Source: a phage
Length of the DNA stretch: 64,000 nt
Assembly (NCBI GenBank): GCA_018027755.1
Contig: GCA_018027755.1_4098.1
Strand: one strand, 5' to 3'
Shown here: positions 1,908-36,157 of the stretch, in pieces
Numbering within the stretch: position 1 is the stretch's first letter
How the letters are laid out: each line of letters starts with the position of its first letter
Position numbers and translations under genes: made by a program
Notes under the pieces: generated by a model
Told to the model about the DNA's origin: nothing
The model's database searches: none
What the model saw: the letters and a program-made list of their open reading frames with translations, nothing else

Positions 1908-1934
1908 AATAAATCGGGTATATCTTTATTTACC

Positions 1935-1965
1935 TTGTAGACAAACCGTAAGAATGTGATATAAT
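1935..1965 (+). promoter_or_regulatory. sigma70-like promoter with extended -10 (TGaTATAAT) upstream of ClpA-like gene
   Basis: TATAAT at 1960-1965 preceded by TG at 1957-1958; weak -35 (ttgtag/tagaca); same tgtgatataatg motif recurs at 57326 and 62579. Confidence 0.35.
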
Positions 1966-2005
1966 GTTTATTAATTAGAGTGACGTGAATCACATAGGAG
2001 AATAC

Positions 2006-4294
2006 ATGAATCTTACTCAATTGTTCAAAAAAAGCGACGAACTGGCAACATCTCTAGGTCATACATTCTTGACTATTGACCACGTAAGTGCCACAGTACT
2101 GACTATTGATAGCATCAAGAACGTATTTGAAGATATGAACATTGATGCAGACAAACTGCACAACCGCCTGATGAACTATCTTAAAAATACAACAGTTCCA
2201 CATGCACCAAAAAGTGTTAAAGATGAAGACGCGAATCGCACTTCACTTCTAGTGAATCGCGTTGTACATGAGCTTTCTAAAAAATCAGTTATTGAACAAC
2301 TAAAAAGTGATGATTTTTCGATTGATGCATATTTTGTTCTATTCGAATGTCTGTCTTTCCCTAACACAGCACTAGAAGCTGCGTTGAAAGAAGAAGGTGT
2401 TAGCTGTACTGAAGCTGCACGTGCATTGCAAAAACACGTTGAGTCACTTGATAAGGGTATCAACTTACAAAGTATTAATGACGAACCGATTGGAGATAAA
2501 AAAGTGGCCCAACAGCAGCAATCATCTAAACAAAAAGGTTTGGAAGACTATACAACGAATCTAACTGCTCTTGCAAAAGAAGGCAAACTAGATCCTATGA
2601 TTGGTCGCCAGAAAGAATTGTCTGCATTGATTGAGACTCTTGCTCGCAAAACCAAAAAGAATGCTATTCTTACTGGTGAAGCTGGTGTAGGTAAAACACA
2701 AATCATCGACGGTCTTGCACAAGCTATTGCTGACGGCAACGTACCTGAACACCTGAAAGACGTTGAAATTCTTTCACTAAATGTTGGTGCATTGACTGCT
2801 GGTACTAAGTATCGTGGTGAGTTTGAAGAACGCATCGACAATTTGCTAAAAGAACTAAAGAAACGTGAAAATACTATTGTTTTCATTGATGAAATTCATA
2901 TTATGGTTGGGGCTGGTTCCGCTAGTAATGGTTCTATGGACATGAGCAATATGCTTAAGCCAGCACTTTCACGTGGTGAGATTCGTGTAATTGGTGCAAC
3001 AACATATGATGAATATCGTAAAAATATCGAGAAAGATAGTGCATTAACTCGTCGTTTTATGAAAATTGATGTAGTTGAGCCGTCAATTGATGAAACTCGT
3101 GCAATTGTTAATGGTTTGAAACCAACTTATGAAAAATTCCATAATGTTGAGTTCACAACTGATGCAATGGATGCTGTAATTTCTCTCAGTGATAAATTCC
3201 TGAAGAATAAGCACTTCCCAGATAAAGCAATTGATCTAATGGACGCTGCCGCTGCAAAAGTTCGTTCACGTGACAACAATAGTAAGCTTATTACTGCCAA
3301 TTTGATTCAAGAAGTTGTTGCTGGTATTGCCAATTTGGATATCAACGTGGTTGCATGTACTGAAAGTGATCGTATGCGTAATCTACCAGATGCACTACGC
3401 TCACGTGTATACGGTCAAGAGGAAGCTATTCAAAAATTAGTTGATAACGTGATGGTAGCTCGTGCAGGACTGCGTGACAAATCTAGTGTTCAGGGTGCAT
3501 TTATGTTTGTTGGACCATCTGGTACTGGTAAAACAGAAATTACCAAAGCATTAGCAGATGCAACTGGTGCGGAACTGATTCGCTTTGATATGTCAGAATT
3601 TTCTCAAGAACATACTGTTTCTAAACTAATTGGTTCACCTCCAGGTTATGTTGGTCATGATTCTGGTAACGGTTTACTGTTGGATAAAATTGAGCAGTTC
3701 CCTAATGCAGTACTGTTACTTGATGAAATTGAAAAAGCAGATCGTAAAGTACTACTAACCTTCCTACAGGTTTTGGATGAAGGTCGCCTGACTGGTTCAC
3801 AAGGTAAAACTGTATATTTTAATAACGTAACTGTTATTATGACTACAAACCTTGGTGCGGCAGATTCAACGAAGCGTAGCATTGGTATGAGCGGTAGTGA
3901 TACTGCACAAGACAAGGCAATTAAAGCATTCTTGCCACCAGAGTTTATTAACCGTATTGATAGTATCGTTACGTTTAAAGACCTAAGCAGTGAAGCTATT
4001 GACAGCATCATTGATAAGTTCATGGGCAGTTTGAATGAACAAGTCAAAGACCGCAATGTTAAAGTTACATTGACAAAAGCTGCACGTGAATGGCTTGCGA
4101 AAAATGGGGTAAAAGTTGGCATGGGTGCACGTCCAATGAAACGTACCATTGAACAAAACATTCGTGTACCACTAGCTAAAGAAATGTTGTGTGGTTCACT
4201 TGTGAATGGTGGTAACATTACATTTGATGTTATTGATGGTAAAATCGGTATTAAACCGAAACGTTCCAAAGCTGTAGATAAAGCACTGGCATAA
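2006..4294 (+). CDS. ClpA-like AAA+ ATPase/unfoldase (double Clp-N domain, two AAA+ modules)
   Basis: ORF track 1985..4294; likely start ATG 2006 with AGGAG RBS; Walker A GEAGVGKT (D1) and GPSGTGKT (D2), Walker B FIDEIH / [10 protein letters not shown]-terminal Clp-N repeats, IGM loop in D2 resembling the ClpP-docking IGL/IGF loop; no ClpB-type middle domain. Confidence 0.85.
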
Positions 4295-4296
4295 AA

Positions 4297-4330
4297 AAGA
4301 AAAGGAGAGCAATATGCTCTCCTTTTTTAT
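4297..4330. terminator. bidirectional intrinsic terminator between convergent genes
   Basis: 10-bp stem aaggagagca/tgctctcctt (4302-4311/4315-4324), flanked by A-run upstream and T-run downstream. Confidence 0.6.
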
Positions 4331-7300
4331 TACTTAACTAATAATATATTTTTAATATCATTACCACTAACTTGTAGACTATCAGTGTATACTGAAAGAT
4401 CTATAGTGTAACTATTTTGTGTGTAACGTTTTAACATATCATAATTACCTAAATTAATTCCATTGAAAGAATATGTAGTATTAAGTTTAAAATCATGTTC
4501 TGCACTATACATTACACCACGGAGTAAATTATTTGCATTTCTAACTTCAACTTTTTCATATCCAATCGATATAATATCATTCATGTTCGCGGCTGAACCG
4601 GATAAAACATTATTTCTAATACTATAAGGACTTATTGATTTAGGTTGAGAAACATAGGTTGTATTTTCTTCACTAATGGTTGTGATGTTAGTAACAGTAC
4701 CACCAACAACACCGATGTACATACCGTCAACCATTGGATATCCATAAACCCATATACCTTCATTATTTCTAAACGGTTGAATAACACTTGAGTCATATTC
4801 AATAACGTTGATTTCTAAACTATCAGTCATTTTAGTTCTTGCTAATTCACTAAGAACTCCCGCACCAGTAATTGGTAGGTTATAACCGTTGTCGATAGTA
4901 ATTCCATCAACATCAAATATTTCGTTAGAGATTATCCAAACGTCAACGTCATCTGGTGTTATTCCGTCATTGTACTTACCACCATTTAAAGTAGTATCGT
5001 AGAAAACATCATAATTAATTACATCAATTGTGTAATTTCTATTTTGTTCGTACAATTTGATACCATTCTTCACAAATTCTGGGTCAGCAAATGTTCTAAC
5101 ACGAACAATGTTCAATGCAAGAGGCTGTACTGGCTCATTTTGTTGTGCAAGAGTGATATTATCATAACGGAGAACTGTACCAGTACTCTCATCAATCAAT
5201 TCAATCGTTTCTTTACCTGTATTTCTTACAGTGAATAGGATCGGAGTTGTATTGTTTTTGATGTTAGATACACGCAAGATTGTTTCCCATGTGTGATTTT
5301 GATATCTCACAAAATCTTCACCATCAGGAGTGAAAATCATCACCTTATCACCATCAGATAGGTCATTGTCAACTATTTCTGCTTCAGTTAAGCTATTAAT
5401 AGATCTCACACGATAGAAATATTTTTCATCAAACTTCGATGTTGTTTTATTAATATCATTTTCAATCTTAGCATATGAAGGAATACTTACAATTGCTTCT
5501 GTATGTTTATATGGATTGATAATTGCCATACCTTCAGTTTGATATCTGCTGTTATCACGTAATTGTACAAGAGATACATTGTCAAACCCATATCCATCAA
5601 CTGTAAATCTAATTTGACCTACATCACGCCCAGAAGGGTTTATGTCAGATATATCCACAATATAAGGATCAACTTCATCATCTTTAACTTCCCATTTTAT
5701 TGAAGAAGTTTGAGATTCCAATGCTAGGTTATCAAATGCATTCATATCATTGAAGTACTTAGCTTCAGTAATACTATCAAGTATATATTGATAATCAGAA
5801 TACATTGGATTATTTTGATCTAGTGGTAAATCATCAAGATTTATTTCAGCTAGTTCAACCATTTCACCATTTGTGATAAAATAATCTTCCATGAAATCAT
5901 CAATACTTTGTTCATCAGGTATGCTTTGATATACACCGTTAACATTTAAGTAAACATATTTTCGTGGAATCATTGTAATTGCATAGATATCAATTGGGGT
6001 CTTACTAAGAATCTCTTCAGCTTTTTCGTACTTATCAGTAGCGTCTTTGTCGAATAACCCTCTCATACCTGCTAATACGTGAATAGCATCAGTATAGAAA
6101 CGGGTATCACCACCTACTTCATCATAACGATAAACATATACACCATACTCAACTTCAAGTTTAACTTTTACTTCATAGTCTGATGCGTCAGGATTTTTAT
6201 CTTTAATTAATGAAATGTATTTTTGATACAATTCACTGCTTATTTCAAAATATCCATAGTTATAATCATTACTAGAAGAAAAGCCTAATGGAAGTCTAGT
6301 ACTAGGATTGTCATTATAAGTAAGTCCACTAAATCCACATCCAACTTCATCGTGAATTTTCTCATCACTTATATCTTTATAAAGTTTCAAACGGTTTGCC
6401 AATGTGTTATACTGAACATATTGTCTAAGGTCAGTAAACATATCGTTATGCGTTGATTCTTTATAAACACGTTCCAATGTAGCAGTGAATTCATCAGTTG
6501 CTTCTAAATCTTCCGCATGGTCTTTATACCACTGGTTAACGCCATATGCTGTTCCTAGTGTTACATCCAATTCTGGATAGTAGATTTGCATTTGATAAGC
6601 AATAAGAAGATCGAAAGTTTCTTCACTATATTCTGGGAAAGAATATATATAACGTTGTAATTCATAGTTACTAACAGCATCCTTTTCATTGGATTGATAT
6701 TTGTTATTAACACTTACTAATTCATTTATGCTTGCCAAATCTTCATTTGGTTTACACTGAATATTATCATAATGCATAATAATATCAATTTCTTGGAATC
6801 TTCTATTTGGTGTAACGAAATCACTTGGTAGTGAACCTACCTGTTCCCATTTTTGGGTAATTTCATTAAATTGAGCGTACTCATAATCCCAAATATCTTT
6901 TTCAGTTTTGATCCAAGAACCATCAACGAAAATATATCCATTAGGATCTAAATCATTACATAGACCTTTTATTAAATCATCATCAGATGTCTTTTGCTCT
7001 ATTTGTGAACGAATTTTAGTTCTATAAGGTTTAACTTCTTCAAAATATTCAACAATTTGATTAATCAAATTATCGTTTGAATAGTTTTGAACTAATGATT
7101 GTTCCAAACCAACAATATAGATATATGATGTTTTAAATACCCAATCCACAACACTTTGTTCAACATGTACATATTTGACCATATCAAAAACAATTTCGCT
7201 TTGATGTAAATCGAAAGAATTTTTGAGTAAAGCTAGTGCTTTACGAACGTTGATTTCACGATTGCTTAGTGAACCATTATCATTATGAACACTATAATCT

Positions 7301-10300
7301 GCGTAAAGCATATCATTGAGTTCAACTGTACTGTTTTCACGACCAATCGCTTTCCAATAAATTGAATCGCGTGATTGTGATTTAATATACAATGTCCAAA
7401 TGTTTTCACTATCGGTAACTCTGATAATATCGCCAACTTGGTAGTTTTTAGTATTAGCATCTTCTAAGCTTGACTCTTGAGTATAAGTCGTGTTACTATC
7501 ATACCCAACATCATACCAATCAGCATATGACCAGTACTGAGTCATGTCCAATGAAGTTCCTAGTGATTCAACATAATCAGATTGTTTAATCATTTTATGT
7601 TGTCCCTCACCTTTGTTCTCTAACGTTATAGTAACAACACTACCCGCGTTTGCTGGACTATTCATTAACTGAATATATCCATTTTCGTCGAAGTGAATAA
7701 AATAAACAGCACTAGAAGTTAATGGATTTGGTAGATATCCACTAGTACTTAAAATAACAGCGTCATTTTCTTTAAATTTATCACTTTCAACTGCAATAAC
7801 TAATTCATTATTGTAAGACAATACACGGAAAGAAACTTCATTCGGATTAACTTCAGTGGTTTTAACATTAAACACATCTTCCATAACAACACTATTAGTG
7901 GTTATGTTTTGTGACCTATAATAATTATTAGCACTTTCTACAAAGTTTCTACGAGCTTCTATAACATTTTGGAACCAAGTTTTGTTTGATCCTAAACCGT
8001 TATCAACATCTGGATATAATAAATTAATCACAGAACCTGATTCAGTTGTTTCTTGACCAATTAGTGAGTTCCACATTGAATCCCAAATTAGTGGGTTAAA
8101 GTTATAGCTGTCACCTTCTTTACATAGTTGATACTGGTCATGTTTAACAACTTCAGTACTATCCATGTAATAAGAAACAGTTAAAATACTGGTATCATCA
8201 TTCACTTTAAATTGCATATTACTAAGAATAAACGAGTTTTCATTGATTGGAGCGAACCAAGGAATGTTTAGCTGTGTTGGATCTTTAATAATACGAGCAA
8301 TGTCAGTACATGATTTTGTTCTGGTATGTAGTGGTGGTACATAAATTGTATCACGTACCCAGAAATAGTATTTTGTCACATAACTATCAGTTGAACTATC
8401 ATATTCCAAAAATGTACTATAATTATCTTCAAGTGCAGTTCCACTTGGTAGATACATAGTATTATTTTTGTTTTTCTTAGCAACATCTTTACAGTATTTG
8501 TCCCAGTTATATGGCTCAACTGGTGAACAAACCCACTCTAACACATCAATTGTACTATGTGGTAATAAACGACCCCAGTTGTAACGTTTGTATTCATTGG
8601 TTGCATCAATGTCAACATTACCGTCTGCGTCATAAATTGCACGTGTATAATCCAAATAAAATGCAGTACTTGTATTCCACCATACTTGACCAACTTTATC
8701 AGCACCCCAAGCCTGAATTAATTCACCATTGCTATTATATTGTGCTGGGTCTATTGGTGACGTATAAGTTACGTTTTGCATTGCTGCACCAGGAATAACC
8801 CCATTGATAGGGTCATACACATTTAGATATAATGCAGTAATGTTAGTACGTTCATCATATGTAGTTGGACGGTCAAAAAAAGTACTTTGTGGTGCTTTGT
8901 AACTATACTTTTTGTCAATATATGCTTGACGCTCTTCTGCACTGGCAAAACGTGATACATAACGATACAAACGTGGACGTGTATCTGGATCAGTAAATTC
9001 AATATCAATAGATGTGTCAAATGGAACTACCATAACTTTAGGATCAGAACCAGCAGTATAATATTGACTTTCTACTGTTAAAGTATCTGGCATAAAGTTA
9101 GTTTCATCAACAAAATAATAATAATCACCATCTTCAAGTGGTACATTATCAGTTAAAGTTACTTTACAAAATTGTTCAGCATACACATCGGTATTTTCAA
9201 TAGGTGTTATAGAAACCATTTGTACATTAGTATCAACCAATTCAAAAATGTTCCACAAACCATTACCGTCTTTAAACATCCACACAGATTCAGGATTTTC
9301 ACCTTTACCATTAGTATAAGTTATGCGGTCATTATATGCAGTACTGAAATCTTTTGTTGTGTACGATACTTCATCCAATGTTACTGGACCAATATCTGGA
9401 AGTTGGATATTTTCACTTCTTCCACTACGCATTGGGAATGAGAACTTACCATTTGGACGTGTAATCCAACGAGGATCTTTACCCTGCTCACCGAAGTATA
9501 CAATATGATTACCATTACCATTTGAAGTTGCATTTACATCAAAAGAAACCATTTGAGGTTGTTGTTTAAATTGGTCATTAATCAATTTAAATTGAAGATT
9601 TTTCTTACCATCAATATTACCATATGTACCAATTTTAAATGCCCATTCTTGTAATGCTTTATATTCATCTGTGTCATATGATTTAGAAACACGAAGTACA
9701 CGTTCTAAAACTTGGTTAGTACCTTTATCATGAATGAATCCTTTATAGAAATCAACACGACTAACATCACTACTAATCATACGCTGTAGATAATCACGAG
9801 ATTGATAACCAATCAAATGGTTTGACAACTCTTGTAATTGTACATCACTTACTGGAGTTTCACTATCATAATAATGTTGGAAATCCGACACTAATTTTTC
9901 AAATGATGGTAGTGTTCCAGCTTCCAAGATAATAAATCCAGGAGCTTGTAGACGACCAGTCCATGAACCAGTAATGTAGCCATACATTTTAATTAATTCT
10001 TGAATAGAACCATAAGTTGGCTGATAGATATAATCACCAAAAATAGTCTTATCATCAAAAATAACAGCATGTTCATATGAACACAAACTTAAACGAATTA
10101 ATGCTATACGTTTATTGGATTCTAAAGTTCTAACAGTAAAGATATTACCAATACGAGAAGTTTCAATTTCATATTGACGTATACCTTGGTTGTTATCATC
10201 AAGTAATGACCACACACCACCGTTATTTTGTGTAATAGATTGAACTGAACCAAAGTCTGCACCAAATTTAGCATTTGCTGCACTTGGTGTACAAGAAATA

Positions 10301-13300
10301 AATTCACCCGTTACCAGAGAATTCTGACTCCAGATCACAAAATCTTTAGCAATAGTGTTCCAATCTTGTTGAGCACCACTATCATTTACATCTTCAAAAA
10401 TCCAGCCATGTTCTTTAAGATATTCACCATAACCACAAATAAAAGTATAAACTTCTTGGTAACTATTAAAAACTTTACCATATTCAATGGAAGCTTCAGA
10501 TTTCCATTCGTTATAATGAACAACATTGCGGTTTTCTAATTTAAGAGTTACTTTTCTACCATTTTTTACGGGAAGTTTATATTTAAATTTAGCACCAACT
10601 AGATCATATCCATCAATCTGATATGCACTACCATTCCAAGTAATTTTGATCGCACTCATTTGCTCATCACGGATATTATTAGAACGAACAAGACCAATGG
10701 TTTGGTTTTCTTGTGAAATAAGACCGAAAGATTTAGCATTGAATGTTAGCTGATCTGCTTTAGTAAAACCACCAATTTTATGACCAACATTTATATAAGA
10801 AGAACGAACTACATCCCCATATTTGGTTGTAATGTTTTTATTTTGATACATCAAATAATCACTAACAAACATTTGATAACCAATTGTTCTTGTGTTATTT
10901 TCACCATGAACTACAGTGTTTTTATCAAAATTAATACGCTTACGTGTATCACCATAAAGGAATTGTGAACCATCAGTGAATACTTCTTTTAAATTGTCAT
11001 TTCGGGTATCCCAAAAATAGTTAGCAAATTGTGCTGGTTTAGCTTTATACAAAAGCATCATTTGGTCATATGCAAACAATGTAGTGTTCATGTATGTAAA
11101 TTCCATGTCACCCATATCACCATATGTCCAAGGTTCTGCTCTATGATTTAAAGATCCAGACACTAAACCTAAAATTTCAGGTGCAATATATTCAACCACA
11201 CAAATATCAATACCAGAAGATGTTTTATTTCCAGTTTTTGTAATTTTGAATGGCTGTACACCAAATCTTTTATATTTGTCATATTGACCACGACGATCAC
11301 CAAATAAAATAGTTCCAGTACTGCTATCTCCGATAGTGCCGTCGATATCCCATAGACCACTAGGAACTAAATCTCCTTGTTCATTCATAACAAGTGCTTC
11401 ATATACATATACCACATCACTATCACGCTCACCAACTTGAACAGCAGTTGGTTCATATTCTTGGTTCCACCAAGTTGGACGCTGTGAAAAGCCAAACATT
11501 TCCCACGGATGTGTTGCAGGGCGATATGTACCATATTGGTCAGTATAAATTGCACGCCATGAACCACGAGCAGGAATTTCAGTACTTTGACCATTAACTA
11601 CATAATAAGTGCCAGTATAGTTCCAAGTTCTCCAATTGTTAGGATCATAATCATGTGTACTATTACTGATACCATTAGTTGCGGTGAAGTTAATGTATCC
11701 ACGTAGTAATAATGTTTGTTTCTCTTCAGCACTATATTCAGTTTTAGTGAAATATGGTGTAGGGAAAAGGTCATCACTATTCAATACTGGTACGTAATCA
11801 ACATCTTTGAATTTATTATCAATACTATTAAAAATTCTATTTTCTAATTCATATACAACATCATCCATTTTATCAACACCATTGATAACACGGTATGCTT
11901 TGGAAATAATACCAGTATGACTGATGTTATAACAGCTTGGTTTACTACCAGCAGTGAGGAATGTCGCTTTTTCTGGTACATATGCTTGAAGAATACCTAA
12001 GAACTGTGGTGTTGGTGGTATAAATGCACGAATGAATCCAGAAGTACTTCCAACATTATCATAATAGAATGGGAATGAACTATCACGTCCCATATTAATA
12101 GTAGTTAAAATTGCATCAACAATGTTTGCAGCACTATTTTGTAAAAAGTCTGATGGATTTTCATCATACATACGAAGCATTTGTGTATTAAATTTATTAA
12201 TGAATCTAAAATATTCAGATTGCATAAACATAGTTGCTTCAAACAAATCAATATCTTCATTTGCAGTATGTGCCATCAATGGAAGCATAGATGCTTCATT
12301 TTGGATAATTTTAGTACCTACGCCATTATTAACCAATCCTTTAGCCAAACGTTCTTCATAGTCATTGAAATCATCAGAAGAACCACGTGTAATGTTCTTT
12401 TGAATAATATCCTGAAAATGTAAAGTGTAGTCACCTTGGTTAATGTATATAATATTAGAATTATATGGGTTATTTTGTAGGTTGATTGGAACTTCATATG
12501 CACCTAATTCTTTATTAGGAGTTACAGTACTGCTATAAGTTCTGATTTGAATAACAGAATCTTCATCCAAATCTACAGTACTATCTAGAGTGATGCTTTG
12601 TACTTGACCTTTTGAAACATTTTTGGTATATTTGGACACATCAACACCATCAACCACAACTTCAATAATATCAGAATCATTATCTAAAACTTTTTGTGCC
12701 AATTCGAATGTATGGTCATATTTTACAATCTGAACACCATCACCAGTAATTGGATGCCAATCTAGATAAGTTTCACGGTCAGCTTTATAGTACTGATATG
12801 TTCTATCAACTTCAATAACATATGCATACATACCATCAACTGGTTCTTTAAAAACTTCCATATCATAAACAGTACTGAATACACGATACATATCAGTACG
12901 TTGGACTTGTGGAGTTTGTTTTACAAATTGTTTAGAGTACTCTTCTGAACGAACCCAATCGGTTTGAAGATTCATTTCATTATTTTCATCAATAATGTTA
13001 TAATAGTATAAACCATCAATTTCAACTTCTTTCCCAAGATGGTCATAGGTATAACGTTGGGATTGTAAAAAGTTTTCATAAATGTAATAATTATAATCAC
13101 CAAGTTCAATGTTATATCCATATACACTATCAGTTGCATAGTTGTAATTTATTTTAAAACCAAACAACTCTGAACCTTTAAAGTTACTTGATGGATATGT
13201 AGTACTGTTGTCAAGTTTGATACCATTACGATCATAAAGTTGGAATTTAGGGAATACGTTAACACTAGTTTTTGATTGTGCACGAACCCACAAAGATCCA

Positions 13301-14331
13301 TTCCAGTACATAGAACTATTACCATACTCATTACCTTTAGTGATTAGAACAACATCACCATCTTGTGGTTCACCACTTGGGCGTGATTCGGTTTCTTCTT
13401 CTGGATCTAGTGCTAAACCATAAACACGAGTACCATCTTGCATTTTTTTCACATATACATTATAAATTCTATTGTTTTCACCATTGTTACCAATACTGGT
13501 GAATAGAATACGCATTCCATCTTGCGGAATAATACCATCAATACGTATACCACTATTAATATCTTTTTGAACGATATCTTCAGGTTTAATAATATCAGAG
13601 AACAGATCAACAGTTCCACGGAATTTTGTACCGTAGTTAATTAGCTCAATATTTTTATTATATTCAATAATTGGTGCACGTGCACGAATAAAACGTGAAT
13701 CTTGCATTAATTCTTCAGTTAATATTGAGCCATCTTCTAATGTTTCACCTAAAGTATACCAAAAGTTTTGTAGTGACCATGTATTACCATTAAGTGCTCC
13801 ACGTTCCATTACAATGTAATCAGGTGAAGTAATATTATAAGAGTTTTTAGTATCCCAAAGATATGAGCTAAAATTGTTCATTTTATTTGGGTTAATAGCT
13901 GGAGTCCATGCATAAAACTTACCGTTGAACAAACGGCTTTCATTATCGGTTAGTGCTCCATAATGATTCATGTATCCAACTAGATCATCATAAAATTGAA
14001 TTGAACGAATTGTCGAATCATCATTTTTTGAGACGTAAGCAGTGGACAACTGATAAAGTTGACGTGCTACAGTACTTTCATGTAAGAAGATATTACCAGC
14101 AGCGGCAGGAGAACCCATATCACCAATATAGCCGTCAACTAATTCGTTTTCAGCCGGATTAAACCATTGTTGAATAACATCATCACTGACTTTTTGAATA
14201 TCTTCTAAGCCTTGCATCCACTCAGGCAATCTTTTAATAAAAAGCTTCTTCTGTACTGCTTCAGCCATCTGTGTAGGTTGAAACTTAAAATTATTAGTCA
14301 TTTTTGGACTCCATATAATTCGTTCATTCAT
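4330..14331 (-). CDS. giant structural protein (3333 aa), probable baseplate/tail-fiber component
   Basis: single uninterrupted 10 kb ORF immediately downstream of gp6-like gene in the baseplate operon; no recognizable catalytic motifs; position analogous to T4 gp7-gp12 region. Confidence 0.6.
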   Translation of the reverse strand: MNERIIWSPKMTNNFKFQPTQMAEAVQKKLFIKRLPEWMQGLEDIQKVSDDVIQQWFNPAENELVDGYIGDMGSPAAAGNIFLHESTVARQLYQLSTAYVSKNDDSTIRSIQFYDDLVGYMNHYGALTDNESRLFNGKFYAWTPAINPNKMNNFSSYLWDTKNSYNITSPDYIVMERGALNGNTWSLQNFWYTLGETLEDGSILTEELMQDSRFIRARAPIIEYNKNIELINYGTKFRGTVDLFSDIIKPEDIVQKDINSGIRIDGIIPQDGMRILFTSIGNNGENNRIYNVYVKKMQDGTRVYGLALDPEEETESRPSGEPQDGDVVLITKGNEYGNSSMYWNGSLWVRAQSKTSVNVFPKFQLYDRNGIKLDNSTTYPSSNFKGSELFGFKINYNYATDSVYGYNIELGDYNYYIYENFLQSQRYTYDHLGKEVEIDGLYYYNIIDENNEMNLQTDWVRSEEYSKQFVKQTPQVQRTDMYRVFSTVYDMEVFKEPVDGMYAYVIEVDRTYQYYKADRETYLDWHPITGDGVQIVKYDHTFELAQKVLDNDSDIIEVVVDGVDVSKYTKNVSKGQVQSITLDSTVDLDEDSVIQIRTYSSTVTPNKELGAYEVPINLQNNPYNSNIIYINQGDYTLHFQDIIQKNITRGSSDDFNDYEERLAKGLVNNGVGTKIIQNEASMLPLMAHTANEDIDLFEATMFMQSEYFRFINKFNTQMLRMYDENPSDFLQNSAANIVDAILTTINMGRDSSFPFYYDNVGSTSGFIRAFIPPTPQFLGILQAYVPEKATFLTAGSKPSCYNISHTGIISKAYRVINGVDKMDDVVYELENRIFNSIDNKFKDVDYVPVLNSDDLFPTPYFTKTEYSAEEKQTLLLRGYINFTATNGISNSTHDYDPNNWRTWNYTGTYYVVNGQSTEIPARGSWRAIYTDQYGTYRPATHPWEMFGFSQRPTWWNQEYEPTAVQVGERDSDVVYVYEALVMNEQGDLVPSGLWDIDGTIGDSSTGTILFGDRRGQYDKYKRFGVQPFKITKTGNKTSSGIDICVVEYIAPEILGLVSGSLNHRAEPWTYGDMGDMEFTYMNTTLFAYDQMMLLYKAKPAQFANYFWDTRNDNLKEVFTDGSQFLYGDTRKRINFDKNTVVHGENNTRTIGYQMFVSDYLMYQNKNITTKYGDVVRSSYINVGHKIGGFTKADQLTFNAKSFGLISQENQTIGLVRSNNIRDEQMSAIKITWNGSAYQIDGYDLVGAKFKYKLPVKNGRKVTLKLENRNVVHYNEWKSEASIEYGKVFNSYQEVYTFICGYGEYLKEHGWIFEDVNDSGAQQDWNTIAKDFVIWSQNSLVTGEFISCTPSAANAKFGADFGSVQSITQNNGGVWSLLDDNNQGIRQYEIETSRIGNIFTVRTLESNKRIALIRLSLCSYEHAVIFDDKTIFGDYIYQPTYGSIQELIKMYGYITGSWTGRLQAPGFIILEAGTLPSFEKLVSDFQHYYDSETPVSDVQLQELSNHLIGYQSRDYLQRMISSDVSRVDFYKGFIHDKGTNQVLERVLRVSKSYDTDEYKALQEWAFKIGTYGNIDGKKNLQFKLINDQFKQQPQMVSFDVNATSNGNGNHIVYFGEQGKDPRWITRPNGKFSFPMRSGRSENIQLPDIGPVTLDEVSYTTKDFSTAYNDRITYTNGKGENPESVWMFKDGNGLWNIFELVDTNVQMVSITPIENTDVYAEQFCKVTLTDNVPLEDGDYYYFVDETNFMPDTLTVESQYYTAGSDPKVMVVPFDTSIDIEFTDPDTRPRLYRYVSRFASAEERQAYIDKKYSYKAPQSTFFDRPTTYDERTNITALYLNVYDPINGVIPGAAMQNVTYTSPIDPAQYNSNGELIQAWGADKVGQVWWNTSTAFYLDYTRAIYDADGNVDIDATNEYKRYNWGRLLPHSTIDVLEWVCSPVEPYNWDKYCKDVAKKNKNNTMYLPSGTALEDNYSTFLEYDSSTDSYVTKYYFWVRDTIYVPPLHTRTKSCTDIARIIKDPTQLNIPWFAPINENSFILSNMQFKVNDDTSILTVSYYMDSTEVVKHDQYQLCKEGDSYNFNPLIWDSMWNSLIGQETTESGSVINLLYPDVDNGLGSNKTWFQNVIEARRNFVESANNYYRSQNITTNSVVMEDVFNVKTTEVNPNEVSFRVLSYNNELVIAVESDKFKENDAVILSTSGYLPNPLTSSAVYFIHFDENGYIQLMNSPANAGSVVTITLENKGEGQHKMIKQSDYVESLGTSLDMTQYWSYADWYDVGYDSNTTYTQESSLEDANTKNYQVGDIIRVTDSENIWTLYIKSQSRDSIYWKAIGRENSTVELNDMLYADYSVHNDNGSLSNREINVRKALALLKNSFDLHQSEIVFDMVKYVHVEQSVVDWVFKTSYIYIVGLEQSLVQNYSNDNLINQIVEYFEEVKPYRTKIRSQIEQKTSDDDLIKGLCNDLDPNGYIFVDGSWIKTEKDIWDYEYAQFNEITQKWEQVGSLPSDFVTPNRRFQEIDIIMHYDNIQCKPNEDLASINELVSVNNKYQSNEKDAVSNYELQRYIYSFPEYSEETFDLLIAYQMQIYYPELDVTLGTAYGVNQWYKDHAEDLEATDEFTATLERVYKESTHNDMFTDLRQYVQYNTLANRLKLYKDISDEKIHDEVGCGFSGLTYNDNPSTRLPLGFSSSNDYNYGYFEISSELYQKYISLIKDKNPDASDYEVKVKLEVEYGVYVYRYDEVGGDTRFYTDAIHVLAGMRGLFDKDATDKYEKAEEILSKTPIDIYAITMIPRKYVYLNVNGVYQSIPDEQSIDDFMEDYFITNGEMVELAEINLDDLPLDQNNPMYSDYQYILDSITEAKYFNDMNAFDNLALESQTSSIKWEVKDDEVDPYIVDISDINPSGRDVGQIRFTVDGYGFDNVSLVQLRDNSRYQTEGMAIINPYKHTEAIVSIPSYAKIENDINKTTSKFDEKYFYRVRSINSLTEAEIVDNDLSDGDKVMIFTPDGEDFVRYQNHTWETILRVSNIKNNTTPILFTVRNTGKETIELIDESTGTVLRYDNITLAQQNEPVQPLALNIVRVRTFADPEFVKNGIKLYEQNRNYTIDVINYDVFYDTTLNGGKYNDGITPDDVDVWIISNEIFDVDGITIDNGYNLPITGAGVLSELARTKMTDSLEINVIEYDSSVIQPFRNNEGIWVYGYPMVDGMYIGVVGGTVTNITTISEENTTYVSQPKSISPYSIRNNVLSGSAANMNDIISIGYEKVEVRNANNLLRGVMYSAEHDFKLNTTYSFNGINLGNYDMLKRYTQNSYTIDLSVYTDSLQVSGNDIKNILLVK

Positions 14332-14346
14332 TTGATTTATTTATGA

Positions 14347-14374
14347 TATAAAAAAGGCGTTCCGAAGAACGCCC
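14347..14374 (-). terminator. intrinsic terminator hairpin between gp6-like and giant gene
   Basis: ggcgttc-cgaa-gaacgcc hairpin (14356-14373) with A-run on + strand upstream (T-run on minus). Confidence 0.45.
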
Positions 14375-14380
14375 GTTATA

Positions 14381-17300
14381 TTAAGAACCGATATTAATAT
14401 TACTTTTAGCTAGTGAGTTAACAATTTGAACATTTTCAACAGATGCAGTACTCAAAAATATTTGGTCTGAACGTGAAGGGATTTCAAATAGAGAGCCAAA
14501 TTTTGAATTTGGATTTTGTGCAACTATAACAATGGTACTAATATGTCTACCTAACTGTGAGTGTATGTAAGTACACAAATCAGTATAATAGAAACTTTCA
14601 CCGAAATCCCAGTTATCAACATTGAAGTATTCATTAGTTAATGCTATGACATTTTGACGAATTTCATCGTCACTCATTGTGCTGTTTGGTAATTTCACTA
14701 CTTTAAAATCAGCTTTGTAATCTTCCGCAGCACTGTTGCCAAATAAAGGTAAGTACTCAGCACTATGCCAAATAATACTATCACTAATGACTATTTTTTG
14801 TTCAACATCTTTGAACATATCTTTCAATTCAACCGATGTAGGTGGTTTAGGAATACTACCAACAGCATTATTTTTCAACCAAACGTCAACTTCAGTTTTA
14901 TATGAATTGGTTAATACATACATATCAATTAAGTTTGTTCTACTAGGATCAATGCGATTGTCGTCAGGTGCATAGTGTTTCCAATGGAAGTCTATGCTAG
15001 TACGTGCATTAGTTTTAACAGTGTACTGTGAAGTAACATCTTTGTATCCATAATAATCTAGCTTCTGATTCTCGTCAGCATTAGTTCCCATGTTATTAAT
15101 TGCACGATAAAAAGCCAATTCAGGACTAACAGTGCCAGTATCATCGGAATAAGTTAAATTACTAATTAGCTGTCCTAAACGATCATTGTTATTACCAACT
15201 GTTTGTTCAATAAAATAATATTTACCATCATAGTTAAAACCAACTAAAAATCCAGAACCTTTACTATATAATCCACTCAATGTGGTTGAACGAATTGCGT
15301 TATTTCTAACAAATTCAGTTCTTTTATATGCATTCGGCTCTGCCAAGGCTTGTTCCATTGTATAAGACCAAGATGAATCAAGAAGTGTGAAAGTATCATT
15401 TGGTAAAGATAGTACTGATATAGTGAAATCACTATTTTCCTGAAATACCAAAATACCACCATATTTTAATGCATCGGTTCCAGTCCAAGTAGGGACAATT
15501 TCTTTAAATTGGTTTGGTTCCAATGGTATACCATTACTATCTACTTTCCTAGATGTAACAATAACACGAGAACCATCTAGATAGCCATTCTCTTGTTGAA
15601 TTGTGTCATAAATTTGAAAATCTATATTACTTGTCAATCCTGAATTACTACTACTAGTAGTGTTAGATGATAAAATTTCAATCTTATCACTTTGAACTGT
15701 ACCAGTACTAATATCAGTGATTTTTTTAGATGATACAAAGTAAAATCTTACTTTTTCTCCACCCACAAAAATATATTCAATACCGTTAGCATCAAATTCC
15801 CAAGTTTCTGCTGTATATTTTACATTAATTATAATTAAAACTTCATTGCCATTATATACAATAGTATCATCATTGGTACTTACTTCAATAGGAACCCATG
15901 ATGTCGTTTCTTTGTCATGTACAATAACAAAATCAGTTTTTTTATCTAGCATAGCAGAAATTGCTTGAACTTCAACCGAGTTAAATCTAGTTCTATATGG
16001 TAAAATGTACTCTATGGCTTGCATTCCACTTGGAACCGATGTACTCAGTACATAAAATCCATTATCCAATACACTAACTACACTAGCCCATATAGTAGTT
16101 CCAGAATTAGAAAATTTAATTAGAGTACCAACCTGATATGAACCATAAACTGTACCAGATGAACCCAAAATTCTACCATATGTGTTAGTTGTATAATTTG
16201 AATTGTATACCGGAGTCCATGCTTGTTGTATTTCAATACCAATTGTATTTGATGGAAACGCTTGGTAACGTTGTATTACCGCATTTTCACCAATCAATGG
16301 TTGAATATTGTCAATAACAATACTAGCATTTGTTTTTGTAGTTGGTAGCAATAATGATCTATTAAATTGTGTGTTTTCTTGATATAATGCACCATCATCA
16401 CTAAAAACATCGGTATTTTGATACTTACCAGTAGGATCATTAATATCAATAAATCTTGATTGTCCACTATAAATTCTATTAATAGCTTTAGATTTAAGTA
16501 CAGTATTGCCTAAACTAAGTGGTGCAATATTATAATCTTCACCATTGACAAAACGGTTTTGTGTATAGTACATTTGTGGTGCACGTGCTTTAATCTGCTC
16601 AATAGTCTCTGCACTTTGTGCACGGTCGGACTCATATTGTAATGAAAAACGTATATCCAATGTACTAGATTCATAACTTGACTGTGTTTTTGTACGATAT
16701 GTATATTTTACGCTTTTATTTTGAATTTCAGAAGTTTTAATGTTATATGTTTTACCATTACTAACACGATACCATACACGGAACGTCCCACGGGGAACAA
16801 CACCACTTCTTGAGTCTGGGTACTTAATTGTTATTTGGTCTTTATCACGAGTAGTAACAGCAAAAATTGTTTTTAATTGACGATTAACAGTGTTATATGC
16901 AATACTTTCCATTGATGGAACTTTTGTCCATTTGGTACGAACAATACCATCTTCATTTATTTCTTGAACCCATACATCAGTTTCGTTGATATTATCAACG
17001 TTAATATCTTGTATACGGTTCTCTTCACGGATAGCATATTGATAATCTTGATATGTCAATGTACCTTGTACGAAATATACAAAAAACCCAGTATTTGGTG
17101 AGCTAAATCCATTACCATCATTTTGATAAACAATATATTTTTGCTCTTGTGGTTCTGGATGTCGTTCTTCAACACCAACAGACGTAATATCAGGATTCAC
17201 TACTTCAAATGTCATAGATTCACCATTGACAGTTGCAACAAATGGAATACTGGGTGCTGTCATTGGGATGGTGTTCATTCGATATAGTTGGCGGGAGACA

Positions 17301-17842
17301 CCATTAACATCAATACGCTTGACTGGATTACCAAATTGGTTAGTACTGACAAATGAACTGTTCATTACTAGAATAAAGTTTTCATACCAGTTAGCATCCA
17401 TCGGGTCATTCCAACGAATGATTTTATCTTTTAATGATTCATTAAAACTATTACGAACATCTTGGTTTGTTTTAATTTCGGTTAATTTAGCAACTGCACG
17501 ACCTGGATATGAGCGGCGTGGTGAGTAAGAAATCATTTTAGCTAGTTTTAGTACTGATGCACGACGAGTTGCAGTATCTAAAAAGTTTTCACGTGTGTTC
17601 AAATCCATACGAAATGCCAAGTTCTGACCTAGCATAGAAATCGTATCTAAAATAAAAATAAACTGGTCGTTTTCGATCCAGTCGTTGAATGAGTCTGGGT
17701 AAGTTGCACGTAGATAATCAATCATACTCTGACGGATAGTATCGAAATCATAAGCTGTTAGATTGATTTTATAAAAACTTTCATATACTTGAGTCCAATC
17801 CTCACCACTATATAAATTAGACTGTCTTTTTTGTTGTGACAT
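14381..17842 (-). CDS. baseplate wedge protein, gp6-like (baseplate J family), enlarged
   Basis: 1153 aa; N-terminal region alignable by eye to T4 gp6 N-terminus (AYDFDTIRQSM ~ DYDFEGSRLNVL; TATRRASVLKLA ~ TANLRSSVVQAA); directly downstream of gp25-like gene. Confidence 0.5.
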   Translation of the reverse strand: MSQQKRQSNLYSGEDWTQVYESFYKINLTAYDFDTIRQSMIDYLRATYPDSFNDWIENDQFIFILDTISMLGQNLAFRMDLNTRENFLDTATRRASVLKLAKMISYSPRRSYPGRAVAKLTEIKTNQDVRNSFNESLKDKIIRWNDPMDANWYENFILVMNSSFVSTNQFGNPVKRIDVNGVSRQLYRMNTIPMTAPSIPFVATVNGESMTFEVVNPDITSVGVEERHPEPQEQKYIVYQNDGNGFSSPNTGFFVYFVQGTLTYQDYQYAIREENRIQDINVDNINETDVWVQEINEDGIVRTKWTKVPSMESIAYNTVNRQLKTIFAVTTRDKDQITIKYPDSRSGVVPRGTFRVWYRVSNGKTYNIKTSEIQNKSVKYTYRTKTQSSYESSTLDIRFSLQYESDRAQSAETIEQIKARAPQMYYTQNRFVNGEDYNIAPLSLGNTVLKSKAINRIYSGQSRFIDINDPTGKYQNTDVFSDDGALYQENTQFNRSLLLPTTKTNASIVIDNIQPLIGENAVIQRYQAFPSNTIGIEIQQAWTPVYNSNYTTNTYGRILGSSGTVYGSYQVGTLIKFSNSGTTIWASVVSVLDNGFYVLSTSVPSGMQAIEYILPYRTRFNSVEVQAISAMLDKKTDFVIVHDKETTSWVPIEVSTNDDTIVYNGNEVLIIINVKYTAETWEFDANGIEYIFVGGEKVRFYFVSSKKITDISTGTVQSDKIEILSSNTTSSSNSGLTSNIDFQIYDTIQQENGYLDGSRVIVTSRKVDSNGIPLEPNQFKEIVPTWTGTDALKYGGILVFQENSDFTISVLSLPNDTFTLLDSSWSYTMEQALAEPNAYKRTEFVRNNAIRSTTLSGLYSKGSGFLVGFNYDGKYYFIEQTVGNNNDRLGQLISNLTYSDDTGTVSPELAFYRAINNMGTNADENQKLDYYGYKDVTSQYTVKTNARTSIDFHWKHYAPDDNRIDPSRTNLIDMYVLTNSYKTEVDVWLKNNAVGSIPKPPTSVELKDMFKDVEQKIVISDSIIWHSAEYLPLFGNSAAEDYKADFKVVKLPNSTMSDDEIRQNVIALTNEYFNVDNWDFGESFYYTDLCTYIHSQLGRHISTIVIVAQNPNSKFGSLFEIPSRSDQIFLSTASVENVQIVNSLAKSNINIGS

Positions 17843-17907
17843 AATTTATTCCTTTAAATCAGTAAAGTACTAGATCAGTACTGGGAATTATATATAGAAA
17901 TATTTAT

Positions 17908-17943: not shown

Positions 17944-18339
17944 TTATAAAGACGAAACTGAATATGTTGCCATTCGATTATTACTTCTTGCATCAAATAC
18001 TATAGTAAGTTCTTCTAATGTGTCCAATACTACGTACTGTAATACAATATTCATTTGGTATCCATATTCTATTCTTGAAATTTGTAATTTTTTAAGATTT
18101 AAACGTGGGTCTAAGCTAATTATTCTACGGGCATCTGCTTCTAAAAGGTTGATAGTATTATAACCTTCCAATTCAAATAGCAAATCCCATGCAATAAACC
18201 CATAGTCAGCATCAAATGCTCGTTCACCTTTTTTTGTATTGAAATGATTCATTAAATCTTGGCGAACCAATTCACTATCATACAATGTTTCAGTTCTACC
18301 AACTACAGGGGTAGAAAACCCTTTAAAAACAACTGCCAT
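17944..18339 (-). CDS. baseplate wedge subunit, gp25-like
   Basis: 131 aa (T4 gp25 is 132 aa); baseplate context between lysozyme and gp6-like gene. Confidence 0.7.
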   Translation of the reverse strand: MAVVFKGFSTPVVGRTETLYDSELVRQDLMNHFNTKKGERAFDADYGFIAWDLLFELEGYNTINLLEADARRIISLDPRLNLKKLQISRIEYGYQMNIVLQYVVLDTLEELTIVFDARSNNRMATYSVSSL

Positions 18340-18843: not shown

Positions 18844-18879
18844 AAAGATATCCTCGTTTTATTTATAGTGCTAAAATAT

Positions 18880-21543
18880 TTATTGACATGCCTCCAAACG
18901 ACGAGCCATTAACTCCGCACGGCGTGTGGTTTGGCGATACCAAGCAGAATTGCGGATTTGTGCCGCTGCTTGTTTATAATTACCTTTTGCCATTTCTGAT
19001 AACATAGTTTTAAATTTCAATACACCACCTTTACCCATCTGAAATACCATTTGGCATAGTACTTGTTGAGCAAGATAAGGAGTTTTCATGTTATATGAAG
19101 CATAAATTGATTTGGCATCATAAATTGCTTTACTACTATCACGAACTAACATATCATTTGCTTGTTGTTCAGTTATTCCATCAGAGAAGTTTTCACCGCT
19201 AACAATTAAGTGACCGTAACCAATAGTTGGATATCCACGACTATCTAAATAACGCCAGAACTTACCATTACGATAATATCCCTTTGCTTGTTGATATTGT
19301 AATGTACCCTCATATTCTTTTAATTCAGAAATAAACTGAGCATCACCTGGAACAACTTTCCAATCTATGGCTGTTTTATCAACATTACCTATATTATAAG
19401 TTGGTTGCTCAACTGGCGTAGTTGAAACACCACTTCTTTGTGTTCTTCTCCTACGAGGAACATGTCGTGAACCACGTTGTGAATAACCTGTACCAATTGT
19501 TTTAATTTTTGTAGTAACTACTAATTCATCACTATCAACAGAAGGTTGCACTACTGCTTGAGGTGCAGATTGATTGGTTGCTTTTCCTGCAATTAATGTT
19601 TTATTGGCTGCGTCAGAACCAGTACCAGTTTGAGATGCATAAAATAGACCCGGATCAACTGAACCGCTAAAACCAAGCACGTTAGCTGATGTAACACGTA
19701 TTTCAAACTGTATAACACCATTTGCTTTACCAACAACTTGGCCTTTTTGAACAACATCTTTGTTTAATAAATCAGATTGAATATTATAAAATACAGATTT
19801 ATATCCTGACTTATGTTGTATTAACAGTGCACCATTAGTAATTACTATTACACCACCATCGGGTGCAACTATGTCACCTTTACATTGTATTTCCCATCCA
19901 GAACGATCTGACTTCCCACCACTTTGTGTTGGAACACCTTTCCCCCAATAACCATATTGGCGAATAGTACCACTACATGGCATGAACATATGTAAACCTT
20001 CATATGTAATACTATATCCAGTCATCCCAGGGTCAGATGTCATTAAATCTTGAGATTGCACTTGTTCAGTTTCTGATGTATAGTTAACAAACTGAACAGC
20101 TTCAGTGTCTTGTGCTACGGGTAATTCTGGTGATACATCATTTGCTGGTTGTGGTTGTACTGGTGATTCACTAGAACCACTTCCACCACCTTGTCTTGGT
20201 GGTTCAACATAACTACCATGATTTTCAGCGTTAACCCATGCAGCAATATCATGAATGTGTTCATTAAGACCAGCAGATGGTGTTCTAAAGTTTGGTGCAG
20301 TAAATTCAGCAGTACCGCTATTACCACCACTATTAACTGTTAATGTTTGACCACCACCACTAATAATTGCTGATGATGATCCAATTAGGTTTGCAGATGT
20401 TGCGGCAGAAATAGAAGCATTTGAACCAGCCGTAATATCAGTACTGCTACCACTTTGCATACGTAATGATGCAGCAGTAACTAAACGAAGGTCTGCCCCA
20501 GAATTAACAACAACTTGACCACCAACTTTTGCATCAAGAGCACCAATTAGATCTAATTTAGTATTTGCACCAACTCGTGCATTGAAATCTTGTCCGGTTT
20601 CAATATTATATGAACGTCCAGCAGTAATATTAATATCTTGACCAGCACGAATATTAATATTCTTATCACAATGCATGTCAATATCACCTTCACCAGTGAA
20701 TTTTATACGTGCAGTGCCATCACGGTTAATTAAAAGAACATCACCAGTAGCTTCTGATAAAAGAAGTTGTGCACCACTACGTGTTTTTATTACGACACCT
20801 TCATTTTTACGAGAACCAACACGTGTATCGTTTACTGGGTTATTAAATTGTGTATCTTGATATCCATCTGGGTCTTGATCCCACGTTGGTGCTGTTAATT
20901 CCTCTTCAGTATATCCATCATCAATAATAAAACTATTACCACGTGGCGAAGACATACCATATACAGTACTGGTGGTTTGACGAGTACTACTACGATTCGC
21001 CAACCCAGCTTCTTCGTCATATAAAAGGTTTTGCTTTTTAAGACCTGCGATAATTGGAACGTTAGCATATTTGTCTTGCATATCGGTAGTGATAGTGTTA
21101 CGATCATAGTCAGTAACAGGAAGTGGCATATCAGTTCCACCATAATTACTTACTTCAGTTGCCATACCAGGAACCATAGTATTCATACGCTGGTCATATA
21201 CACAACCAATCCAATATGCTTGGAATGTACGGGCTTGTGCAAAAATTACAACAACTGTACACCCTACATCTGGTGGTACTGCCCAAAAACCATATCCTTT
21301 TGGATATTGACCATATGCATCAGCACTTGGAATACCTGGTGTTTTGCCAGCAAAAGGAGACATGTAAGATGCTTCTATCCATGATTCTTTTGAGTTTTTA
21401 TCACTTTGAGAACCTTGTATCCAAACTTTCAGTTTTCCTGATTTAGTTGGATCTCTGTTATCCATAACAGTTGCTAACTGCGGATAAGATGGGTCAAAAC
21501 GACCCAACTGCTGTTGTGCATACTTTTTACTTGTATCTGCCAT
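18880..21543 (-). CDS. baseplate central spike, gp5-like: N-terminal OB-fold, beta-helix repeats, degenerate M23-like segment, C-terminal GH24 lysozyme
   Basis: 887 aa; N-terminus resembles gp5/VgrG OB domain; Gly/Ser/Ala/Asn-rich repeat block; C-terminal 150 aa ~50% identical by eye to the adjacent free lysozyme (LDSRGYPTIGYGH, MVFQMG). Confidence 0.75.
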   Translation of the reverse strand: MADTSKKYAQQQLGRFDPSYPQLATVMDNRDPTKSGKLKVWIQGSQSDKNSKESWIEASYMSPFAGKTPGIPSADAYGQYPKGYGFWAVPPDVGCTVVVIFAQARTFQAYWIGCVYDQRMNTMVPGMATEVSNYGGTDMPLPVTDYDRNTITTDMQDKYANVPIIAGLKKQNLLYDEEAGLANRSSTRQTTSTVYGMSSPRGNSFIIDDGYTEEELTAPTWDQDPDGYQDTQFNNPVNDTRVGSRKNEGVVIKTRSGAQLLLSEATGDVLLINRDGTARIKFTGEGDIDMHCDKNINIRAGQDINITAGRSYNIETGQDFNARVGANTKLDLIGALDAKVGGQVVVNSGADLRLVTAASLRMQSGSSTDITAGSNASISAATSANLIGSSSAIISGGGQTLTVNSGGNSGTAEFTAPNFRTPSAGLNEHIHDIAAWVNAENHGSYVEPPRQGGGSGSSESPVQPQPANDVSPELPVAQDTEAVQFVNYTSETEQVQSQDLMTSDPGMTGYSITYEGLHMFMPCSGTIRQYGYWGKGVPTQSGGKSDRSGWEIQCKGDIVAPDGGVIVITNGALLIQHKSGYKSVFYNIQSDLLNKDVVQKGQVVGKANGVIQFEIRVTSANVLGFSGSVDPGLFYASQTGTGSDAANKTLIAGKATNQSAPQAVVQPSVDSDELVVTTKIKTIGTGYSQRGSRHVPRRRRTQRSGVSTTPVEQPTYNIGNVDKTAIDWKVVPGDAQFISELKEYEGTLQYQQAKGYYRNGKFWRYLDSRGYPTIGYGHLIVSGENFSDGITEQQANDMLVRDSSKAIYDAKSIYASYNMKTPYLAQQVLCQMVFQMGKGGVLKFKTMLSEMAKGNYKQAAAQIRNSAWYRQTTRRAELMARRLEACQ

Positions 21544-31999: not shown

Positions 32000-32129
32000 T
32001 TTATTAAATCTCCATGTAATAAATGTGTTTTAGTATTTATAAGACTAAAAAAGATTAAATTAAACTAATTTTTATATTCTCTATAGTTTCATAAATATTT
32101 CTATAATACATCTATTAAAAGGGAATGTT

Positions 32130-36085: not shown

Positions 36086-36157
36086 ACATAAATAACAGTG
36101 TATAAGAATGAGGGTTTATTTTACCCTCATTTATAATGCATATTTCAAGGAGATCAA

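Follow-up and report, generated by a model that had tools for sequence, protein, structure and literature searches.

A giant virion protein encoded directly after the gp6-like baseplate wedge gene in RaK2-like jumbo phages

A 64,000-nucleotide stretch of phage DNA (contig GCA_018027755.1_4098.1 of GenBank assembly GCA_018027755.1, here called the window) carries an uninterrupted minus-strand open reading frame (ORF) of 3333 codons and a stop, which lies at 4330..14331 directly downstream of a gp6-like baseplate wedge gene. We propose that the product, referred to here as the giant, is probably a monomer of many domains that forms part of the baseplate wedge and periphery and stands in the place of T4 gp7. 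A preliminary description of the window had seen in this frame a structural giant of the baseplate operon, possibly a fusion of wedge and fiber functions or a very large adhesin, and had named it a likely determinant of host range. That interpretation is partly supported: the analysis below favors a wedge and periphery scaffold at the gp7 place and speaks against a variable adhesin.

The reading frame, its protein family and its presence in virions

With the base composition of the window, a stop-free run of 3333 codons would arise by chance with a probability of ~1e-104, so that the frame seen in the preliminary description is real, although the strand had been left out there. The first ATG (nt 14331) has no Shine-Dalgarno sequence, and a GGAG lies upstream of the second (M11, nt 14301; Table 1), at the place where a ribosome binding site is annotated in phage UE-S1. 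M11 is also where the PHROG profile, the homologues and the closest database cluster (3323 amino acids, aa) begin, and the annotations of 121Q, BF17, slurp01 and UE-S1 all start there. The product from M11 has a predicted mass of 381.93 kDa, compared with the 381.88 kDa given for phAPEC6 gp245 in the virion protein list of that phage (PMC7247149). On these sequence comparisons M11 is the probable start of the coding sequence.

The giant belongs to a single protein family over its full length. The phrog_10938 profile matches it with an expectation value (E) of 0 and 5790.9 bits (residues 11-3330 on profile positions 1-3324); a search of PHROGs returned this family only, and a Pfam scan of the whole protein returned no domain. 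By megablast the 10-kb gene is ~98% identical at the nucleotide level in PBECO4, 121Q, phAPEC6, G17, Sharanji and other Asteriusvirus genomes, with further matches at 60-90% identity in jumbo phages of Escherichia, Klebsiella, Erwinia, Cronobacter and Serratia. At least 80% of the giant is covered in 35 phage records at the DNA level and in 73 at the protein level, and amino acid identity to PBECO4, 121Q and slurp01 is 99.6%. Using tblastn the family was found in 93 phage records, which include Alcyoneusvirus (RaK2, K64-1), Erwinia phages, GAP32, CBB, Serratia BF, Yersinia fHe-Yen9, Salmonella Munch, a Vibrio phage, the PA5oct group, Sinorhizobium Phosso, Atu_ph07 and Salicola SCTP-2, with weaker matches in Xoo-sp13 and XacN1. 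A search of the protein database returned 198 homologues; the 120 listed are all giants of 2779-5638 aa, among which the homologues with 44% identity or more keep colinearity and a length of 3310-3361 aa. A scan of IMG/VR gave at least 594 stretches encoding a relative, and two homologues (P0077, P0078) come from metagenomic contigs as long as 512 and 481 kb, which extends the family to genomes of megaphage size. The gene takes up ~3% of the genome and is the largest, and among the most conserved, in every RaK2-like jumbo phage.

Among cultured jumbo phages the orthologues (PHROG 10938) are PBECO4 gp538, 121Q gp582, phAPEC6 gp245, RaK2 ORF070w, CBB_236, PA5oct gp128 and Atu_ph07 gp180, which share the family over their full length and the matching gene position, with no substantial difference from the giant of the window. 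Two of them have been detected in purified virions by mass spectrometry (MS): phAPEC6 gp245 gave 17 unique peptides and is listed right after gp244, a "baseplate wedge" protein (PMC7247149), and CBB_236 gave 21 peptides and lies next to CBB_237, also "baseplate wedge" (PMC5259590). In the latter report the RaK2-like genomes were oriented by the giant as the "largest ORF". The observation is therefore not new, as gene and product are already found in RefSeq (in the PBECO4 record as gp538, YP_009150852, "virion structural protein") and in several papers. In the database records and the available text of the literature on RaK2, CBB, phAPEC6, PA5oct, Atu_ph07 and fEgEco12 and of jumbo-phage reviews, no function beyond "virion structural protein" is given.

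The preliminary description had allowed for an artificial fusion produced by sequencing or assembly frameshifts and for absence of the protein from virions. Both doubts fail because the gene is widely intact and orthologues are found by virion MS. In four listed records the giant is annotated as 3-9 hypothetical proteins, namely OR699183.1, OR699181.1 and OR699182.1 (Salmonella phages SD-1_S14, SD-2_S15 and SD-6_S16) and MH494197.1 (Escherichia phage CMSTMSU). In three of these four assemblies the BLAST match to the giant is itself broken into pieces, and the split annotations probably reflect frameshift errors that were left uncorrected, not a gene that is really divided. We exclude an assembly artefact, to which we would give next to no probability, because 73 phage records and numerous metagenomic contigs assembled from unrelated samples carry the frame uninterrupted, peptides are known from two phages, and purifying selection acts over the whole length.

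The wedge cassette and the place of gp7

In T4 (gp25/gp6/gp7), P2 (W/J/I) and the type VI secretion system (TssE/F/G), the third wedge subunit is as a rule the product of the gene that follows the gp6 homologue. The giant gene stands where T4 gp7, P2 gpI, Mu gp48 and TssG are encoded, immediately 3' of the gp6/J/TssF homologue in the cassette that also holds a gp25 homologue, and the preliminary description had correctly placed it behind the gp6-like gene.

This order is kept in other phages, distant relatives included. In PBECO4 and RaK2 the genes run gp25-like, gp6-like, giant, as they do in Xoo-sp13, where the giant has 3245 aa, and in two metagenomic contigs (L003 and L004) in which the stop of the gp6-like gene overlaps the start of the giant, a sequence arrangement that suggests coupled translation. 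The genes for gp182, gp181 and gp180 (the giant, 4449 aa) of Atu_ph07 stand together, with hub, lysozyme and tape-measure genes at distant gene numbers, and gp128 of PA5oct, its largest protein, is numbered next to gp129, a "baseplate wedge" protein. We counted the gene context at those 73 IMG/VR loci whose upstream DNA extends for 3.6 kb or more. A gp6-like gene lies directly 5' of the giant on the same strand at 72 of these loci and a gp25-like gene, likewise directly upstream and on the same strand, at 71, while a gp5-like gene is found within 6 kb at only 35. The giant is thus linked to wedge genes rather than to hub or tube genes.

The outer layer of the T4 baseplate is made of gp7 domains together with gp8-gp11, and the phiKZ periphery of at least eight separate proteins. 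In the role that we propose for the giant, its N-terminal helices (~aa 30-57) would, in each of six wedges, connect the gp25-like protein with two copies of the gp6-like protein of 1153 aa. The other ~3200 residues, folded into about a dozen different domains, would form the outer baseplate with one chain per wedge, giving six copies by analogy with gp7. The giant would then be a rigid platform to which fibers attach and through which the attachment signal passes to the sheath, with the core (aa 11-2460) as the scaffold and the clade-specific aa 2470-3333 as its distal, more exposed part. The proposed heterotrimer with the gp6-like protein has a parallel in phiKZ, where the structural atlas describes a 2:1 wedge heterotrimer bundled via N-terminal helices (PMC13250141). 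A tail map of phAPEC6 at ~25 Å has been published (PMC7247149).

Like T4 gp7 the giant is a large multi-domain chain, and its conserved N-terminal helices could enter the wedge core bundle; unlike T4 gp7 (1032 aa) it is ~3.2 times that size and has no detectable sequence or fold similarity to it. In phiKZ the wedge contains two copies of gp87 and one of gp128, the HR1/HR2 rings contain gp49 and gp161, and the star lobes are formed by gp139, gp27, gp26, gp127, gp130 and gp157. There, the periphery is built of many medium-sized proteins, and here a single ~382-kDa chain would do most of their work; no homology between the two was detected.

Several results weigh against a gp7 role. The giant has no fold similarity to solved gp7-like chains, an hhalign comparison of the family profile with T4 gp7 gave a probability of 0.1-0.8%, and a Pfam search at E up to 5 with seven diverse N-termini found no family, gp7-like families included. 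For the T4 set of gp53, gp6, gp7, gp8, gp9, gp10, gp11 and gp12, hhalign gave probabilities that were all below 2%, with a sensitivity limited by the use of a single sequence for each T4 protein. In addition, a 195-200-aa protein of family phrog_11259 is encoded just 3' of the giant in L003, L004 and Atu_ph07 (gp177). The positional assignment to gp7 is plausible but unproven.

The last of these points opens an alternative in which the ~200-aa phrog_11259 protein is the third wedge subunit and the giant a peripheral addition that docks onto the finished wedge as an outer layer. The protein is similar in size to minimal gp7-like proteins such as P2 gpI, and if it were a minimal gp7 the giant would therefore be an add-on layer. 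Homologues are found in PBECO4 (gp544, E 1e-36 to 1e-44) and Xoo-sp13; proteins of the family are encoded at 28892-29500 of L001 (PBECO4 gp544, outside the window), 21654-22241 of L003, 26941-27543 of L004 and 28196-28792 of L011. PBECO4 gp543 (366 aa) was rejected as a relative, as its identity is a forced 22% and gp544 is the true homologue. The phAPEC6 list includes a 21.95-kDa virion protein, gp251c, at the matching list position (PMC7247149), which by its place in the gene list is probably the phrog_11259 protein. Against this alternative, phrog_11259 matches no gp7-like family in Pfam (E up to 1) and has no significant sequence match in the PDB. In Asteriusvirus its gene is ~7 kb off and on the opposite strand; the giant, by contrast, adjoins the gp6-like gene almost invariably and may be translationally coupled to it in the two distant contigs. 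We consider this alternative unlikely, and the phrog_11259 protein may be either a partner of the giant or a real minimal gp7.

Linkage to the wedge rather than to the hub and tube genes also bears on the idea that the giant acts as a tape measure or is carried inside the virion and ejected into the host, in the manner of phiKZ gp181 or the N4 virion RNA polymerase. Size and virion presence would fit such a role, and PHROGs places the family under "head and packaging", a category of little value as evidence, since it is given to every "virion structural protein" family that we met. The models, however, are of a compact globule with several beta-rich domains instead of a long helix, the giant has no polymerase or lysozyme domains, and the annotation of Atu_ph07 includes a tape-measure gene apart from the giant. 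With the commonly used rule of ~1.5 Å per residue, 3323 aa would far exceed the 109-128 nm reported for the tails of fEgEco12, CBB and RaK2. A tape-measure or ejected protein is accordingly very improbable, and the wedge and periphery subunit remains the reading that we prefer.

Domain organization, evolution and the adhesin question

To describe the anatomy of the giant we combined BLAST maps with an alignment of 60 sequences (Table 1). A core common to the whole family is followed by a C-terminal third that is restricted to the RaK2-like clade and is replaced by other sequence in distant members. Insertions are concentrated at aa ~159-170, 470-590, ~760, 1600-1825 (the largest) and 2145-2260. 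The alignment places the conservation maximum at aa 2401-2500, and the most conserved segment (aa 2376-2460) is modeled in the monomer as long helices with the lowest AlphaFold confidence, a predicted local distance difference test score (pLDDT) below 50. Such low values commonly mark a segment that needs a partner in order to fold, making this stretch a candidate inter-subunit interface, and aa 30-57 are, from the model, a candidate helix for the wedge core bundle.

The AlphaFold monomer model of aa 1-1200, from structure-prediction alignments of only 22-23 rows, has a pLDDT of 84.9 and a predicted template modeling score (pTM) of 0.78, and this third of the giant is therefore compact, unlike a fiber. 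Independent models of homologues at 19-33% identity in BFVD agree in fold with the window model (TM-score 0.62-0.84). No solved structure matches the confidently modeled N-terminal third significantly, and neither the whole giant nor a 22-sequence family profile has a significant sequence match among all PDB chains. The C-terminal third is modeled as several confident beta and alpha/beta domains with low-confidence linkers between them. The internal repeats that the preliminary description had thought possible were not found by self-BLAST, and among 78 chunk-pair profile comparisons there was one marginal similarity, between aa ~2165-2224 and ~2970-3047 (probability 47%).

To follow the evolution of the gene we determined nonsynonymous (dN) and synonymous (dS) divergence in sliding windows against PBECO4, 121Q, slurp01, ph0011 and BF17, leaving out the UE-S1 copy, of which the fetched stretch was out of frame. 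Purifying selection acts over the whole length, with dN/dS of ~0.02-0.16 in ph0011 and BF17. The highest values (~0.16) are in the C-terminal third, where divergence runs at about twice the rate of the core. The giant is colinear in phages of eight host genera, without replaced segments, and no cassette swaps or hypervariable tracts were found among the relatives aligned. The nearly constant length, the colinearity and the low dN/dS resemble the evolution of a scaffold. The hypervariable segments anticipated earlier are thus missing, and a variable C-terminal region is present in the sense that it evolves faster and is replaced in distant members, though within the RaK2-like clade it is colinear and not mosaic. 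In the comparisons with the three near-identical phages, PBECO4, 121Q and slurp01, dS is ~0 in many windows and 0.15-0.5 around aa 901-1500 and 1801-1950, in patches that differ between the three. Patchy synonymous divergence with almost no amino acid change suggests recombination tracts between co-circulating lineages and not diversification.

The faster C-terminal third is one of the points that would fit an adhesin or receptor-binding protein that sets host range, as the preliminary description supposed. Distant family members also contain carbohydrate-binding or adhesion-type domains (CBM_5_12, FG-GAP, Laminin_G_3 and TIG), and tail-fiber genes follow the giant shortly after in the distant contigs L003 and L004. 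The FG-GAP repeats of homologues P0088 and P0092 are at the large insertion site and the CBM_5_12 match of P0092 is in its C-terminal region; such inserts suggest that parts of the giant are surface-exposed. In the 5638-aa distant homologue P0094 (L004 10001-10750), the insert at the aa 159-170 hot spot has a weak match (aa 171-228, E 2.7e-4) to phrog_677, the gp9-like "baseplate wedge tail fiber protein connector", which hints that fiber-docking domains can be inserted at this hot spot.

In the giant itself, however, no beta-helix, fiber or known receptor-binding fold was found at a significant Z-score, and its near-identity to the copies in PBECO4, 121Q and slurp01, its colinearity across host genera and its low dN/dS are not what a variable adhesin would show. 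An exhaustive HMMER search with aa 2470-3333 against 1.84 billion representative proteins gave seven hits, two of giant size and five pieces of 60-343 aa that we take to be fragments of giants. These C-terminal 864 aa thus have no relatives outside giants, and because the hits are giants or their presumed fragments the C-terminal third is not a module exchanged with fiber genes. Compared with the branched fibers and tailspikes of RaK2 and CBA120 (gp526-534; TSP1-4), which it matches only over 75-130 residues and without significance, the giant lacks a beta-helix, a fiber shaft and a mosaic C-terminus. Adsorption of RaK2 has been mapped to gp526-534 and gp098 (PMC10253068). A host-range adhesin is thus an improbable role for the giant, and the case for it is weak.

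A wider form of the scaffold reading, which we put forward tentatively and consider rather less likely than not, is that the outer baseplate of this clade of jumbo phages and megaphages (contigs to ~0.5 Mb) is built of one 2800-5600-residue chain per wedge. This chain would be unlike solved folds, would be a non-homologous replacement of both the T4 gp7-gp11 layer and the multi-protein phiKZ periphery, and would carry lineage-specific adhesion domains inserted at a few tolerated loops.

Surroundings of the gene and biological meaning

Table 1. Positions of the giant, its segments and the neighboring features in the window.
Feature	Position	Strand	Remarks
Maximal ORF	4330..14331	-	3333 codons and TAA stop, second TAA immediately after
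Probable true coding sequence from M11	4330..14301	-	3323 aa, 381.93 kDa, pI 4.6
Shine-Dalgarno GGAG	14309..14312	-	7 nt 5' of second ATG
Universal core, aa 11-2460	6952..14301	-	Common to all family members down to ~25% identity
Conserved N-terminal helices, aa 30-57	14161..14244	-	P36 invariant; helix 43-57; pLDDT ~50-68
Insertion hot spot, aa 159-170	13822..13857	-	70-500 extra residues in distant homologues
Less conserved all-beta domain, aa 501-600	12532..12831	-	Gap/insertion region in distant homologues
Least conserved core stretch, aa 1701-1800	8932..9231	-	Largest insertion site; up to ~1600 aa inserted in distant homologues
Most conserved stretch, aa 2376-2460	6952..7206	-	VDWVFKTSYIYI ... 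EVKPYRTKIR; also conserved in distant members
C-terminal third, aa 2470-3333	4333..6924	-	RaK2-like clade only; faster-evolving, colinear
Terminator-like hairpin and T-run	14355..14374	-	Between gp6-like gene and giant
ATAAATA, T4-late-promoter-like	14338..14344	-	Just 5' of giant; putative function
Terminator-like hairpin and T-run	4300..4326	-	12-bp stem; 3' of the double stop; common to the convergent ClpA/B-like gene
Further ATAAATA sites	17901-17907, 18860-18866	-	
Further ATAAATA sites	32091-32097, 36088-36094	+	
gp55-like late sigma factor gene	24995-25834		Encoded in window
273-aa virion protein	24132-24953	-	
104-aa wedge protein	23818-24132	-	
749-aa virion protein	21557-23806	-	
gp5/VgrG-like hub-spike protein	18880..21543	-	887 aa, C-terminal lysozyme domain
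Free lysozyme	18355-18843	-	162 aa
gp25-like wedge/sheath-initiator protein	17944..18339	-	PF04965
gp6-like baseplate wedge subunit	14381..17842	-	1153 aa; phrog_10646 and phrog_219 "baseplate wedge subunit"
ClpA/ClpB-like double AAA+ ATPase	1985-4294	+	Clp_N, AAA, AAA_2, ClpB_D2-small; tail-to-tail with giant

The block that contains the giant is transcribed from right to left. Because a hairpin and an ATAAATA motif separate the giant from the gp6-like gene, the giant of the window looks like its own late transcription unit and not a simple continuation of the operon. The preliminary description, which had placed the gene in a baseplate operon, was right that it adjoins the wedge genes, but these signals set it apart from them. 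ATAAATA is the core of the T4 late promoter TATAAATA and occurs 20 times in the window compared with ~37 expected by chance; the copies that were set against the ORF map sit in short gaps directly 5' of co-oriented ORFs, and there is none on the coding strand within the 10-kb giant.

The CBB counterpart, by family, of the 104-aa wedge protein is linked to T4 gp53 in the CBB report (PMC5259590). PF27647 is precomputed for the gp6-like counterparts in L003 and L004, and locus L003 (P0077 on an 80-kb contig) has at its upstream edge a gene with weak intein and LAGLIDADG matches. The free 162-aa lysozyme matches positions 727-885 of a PHROG that also matches the C-terminal lysozyme domain of the hub protein, and has the appearance of a tandem duplication of this part of the adjacent gene. 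The tail-to-tail pair of ClpA/B-like gene and giant is also present in PBECO4 (gp539) and RaK2 (ORF069). It is pure speculation that the ClpA/B-like product serves the phage as an unfoldase or chaperone, perhaps one that acts on structural proteins of very large size.

To what was already known of this protein we add a likely start codon, a map of core and variable regions, a near-invariant wedge synteny, the lack of repeats and of diversifying selection, and an N-terminal third without a significant match to a solved structure. Several RaK2-like jumbo phages are candidates for phage therapy, and in their engineering host-range variation should be sought in the separate fiber genes and not in the giant. 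If the scaffold role is true, the giant would be the obvious place to begin once baseplate maps of RaK2-like phages become available for interpretation, and would represent a second way to enlarge the baseplate of a contractile tail, by one giant chain instead of many proteins.

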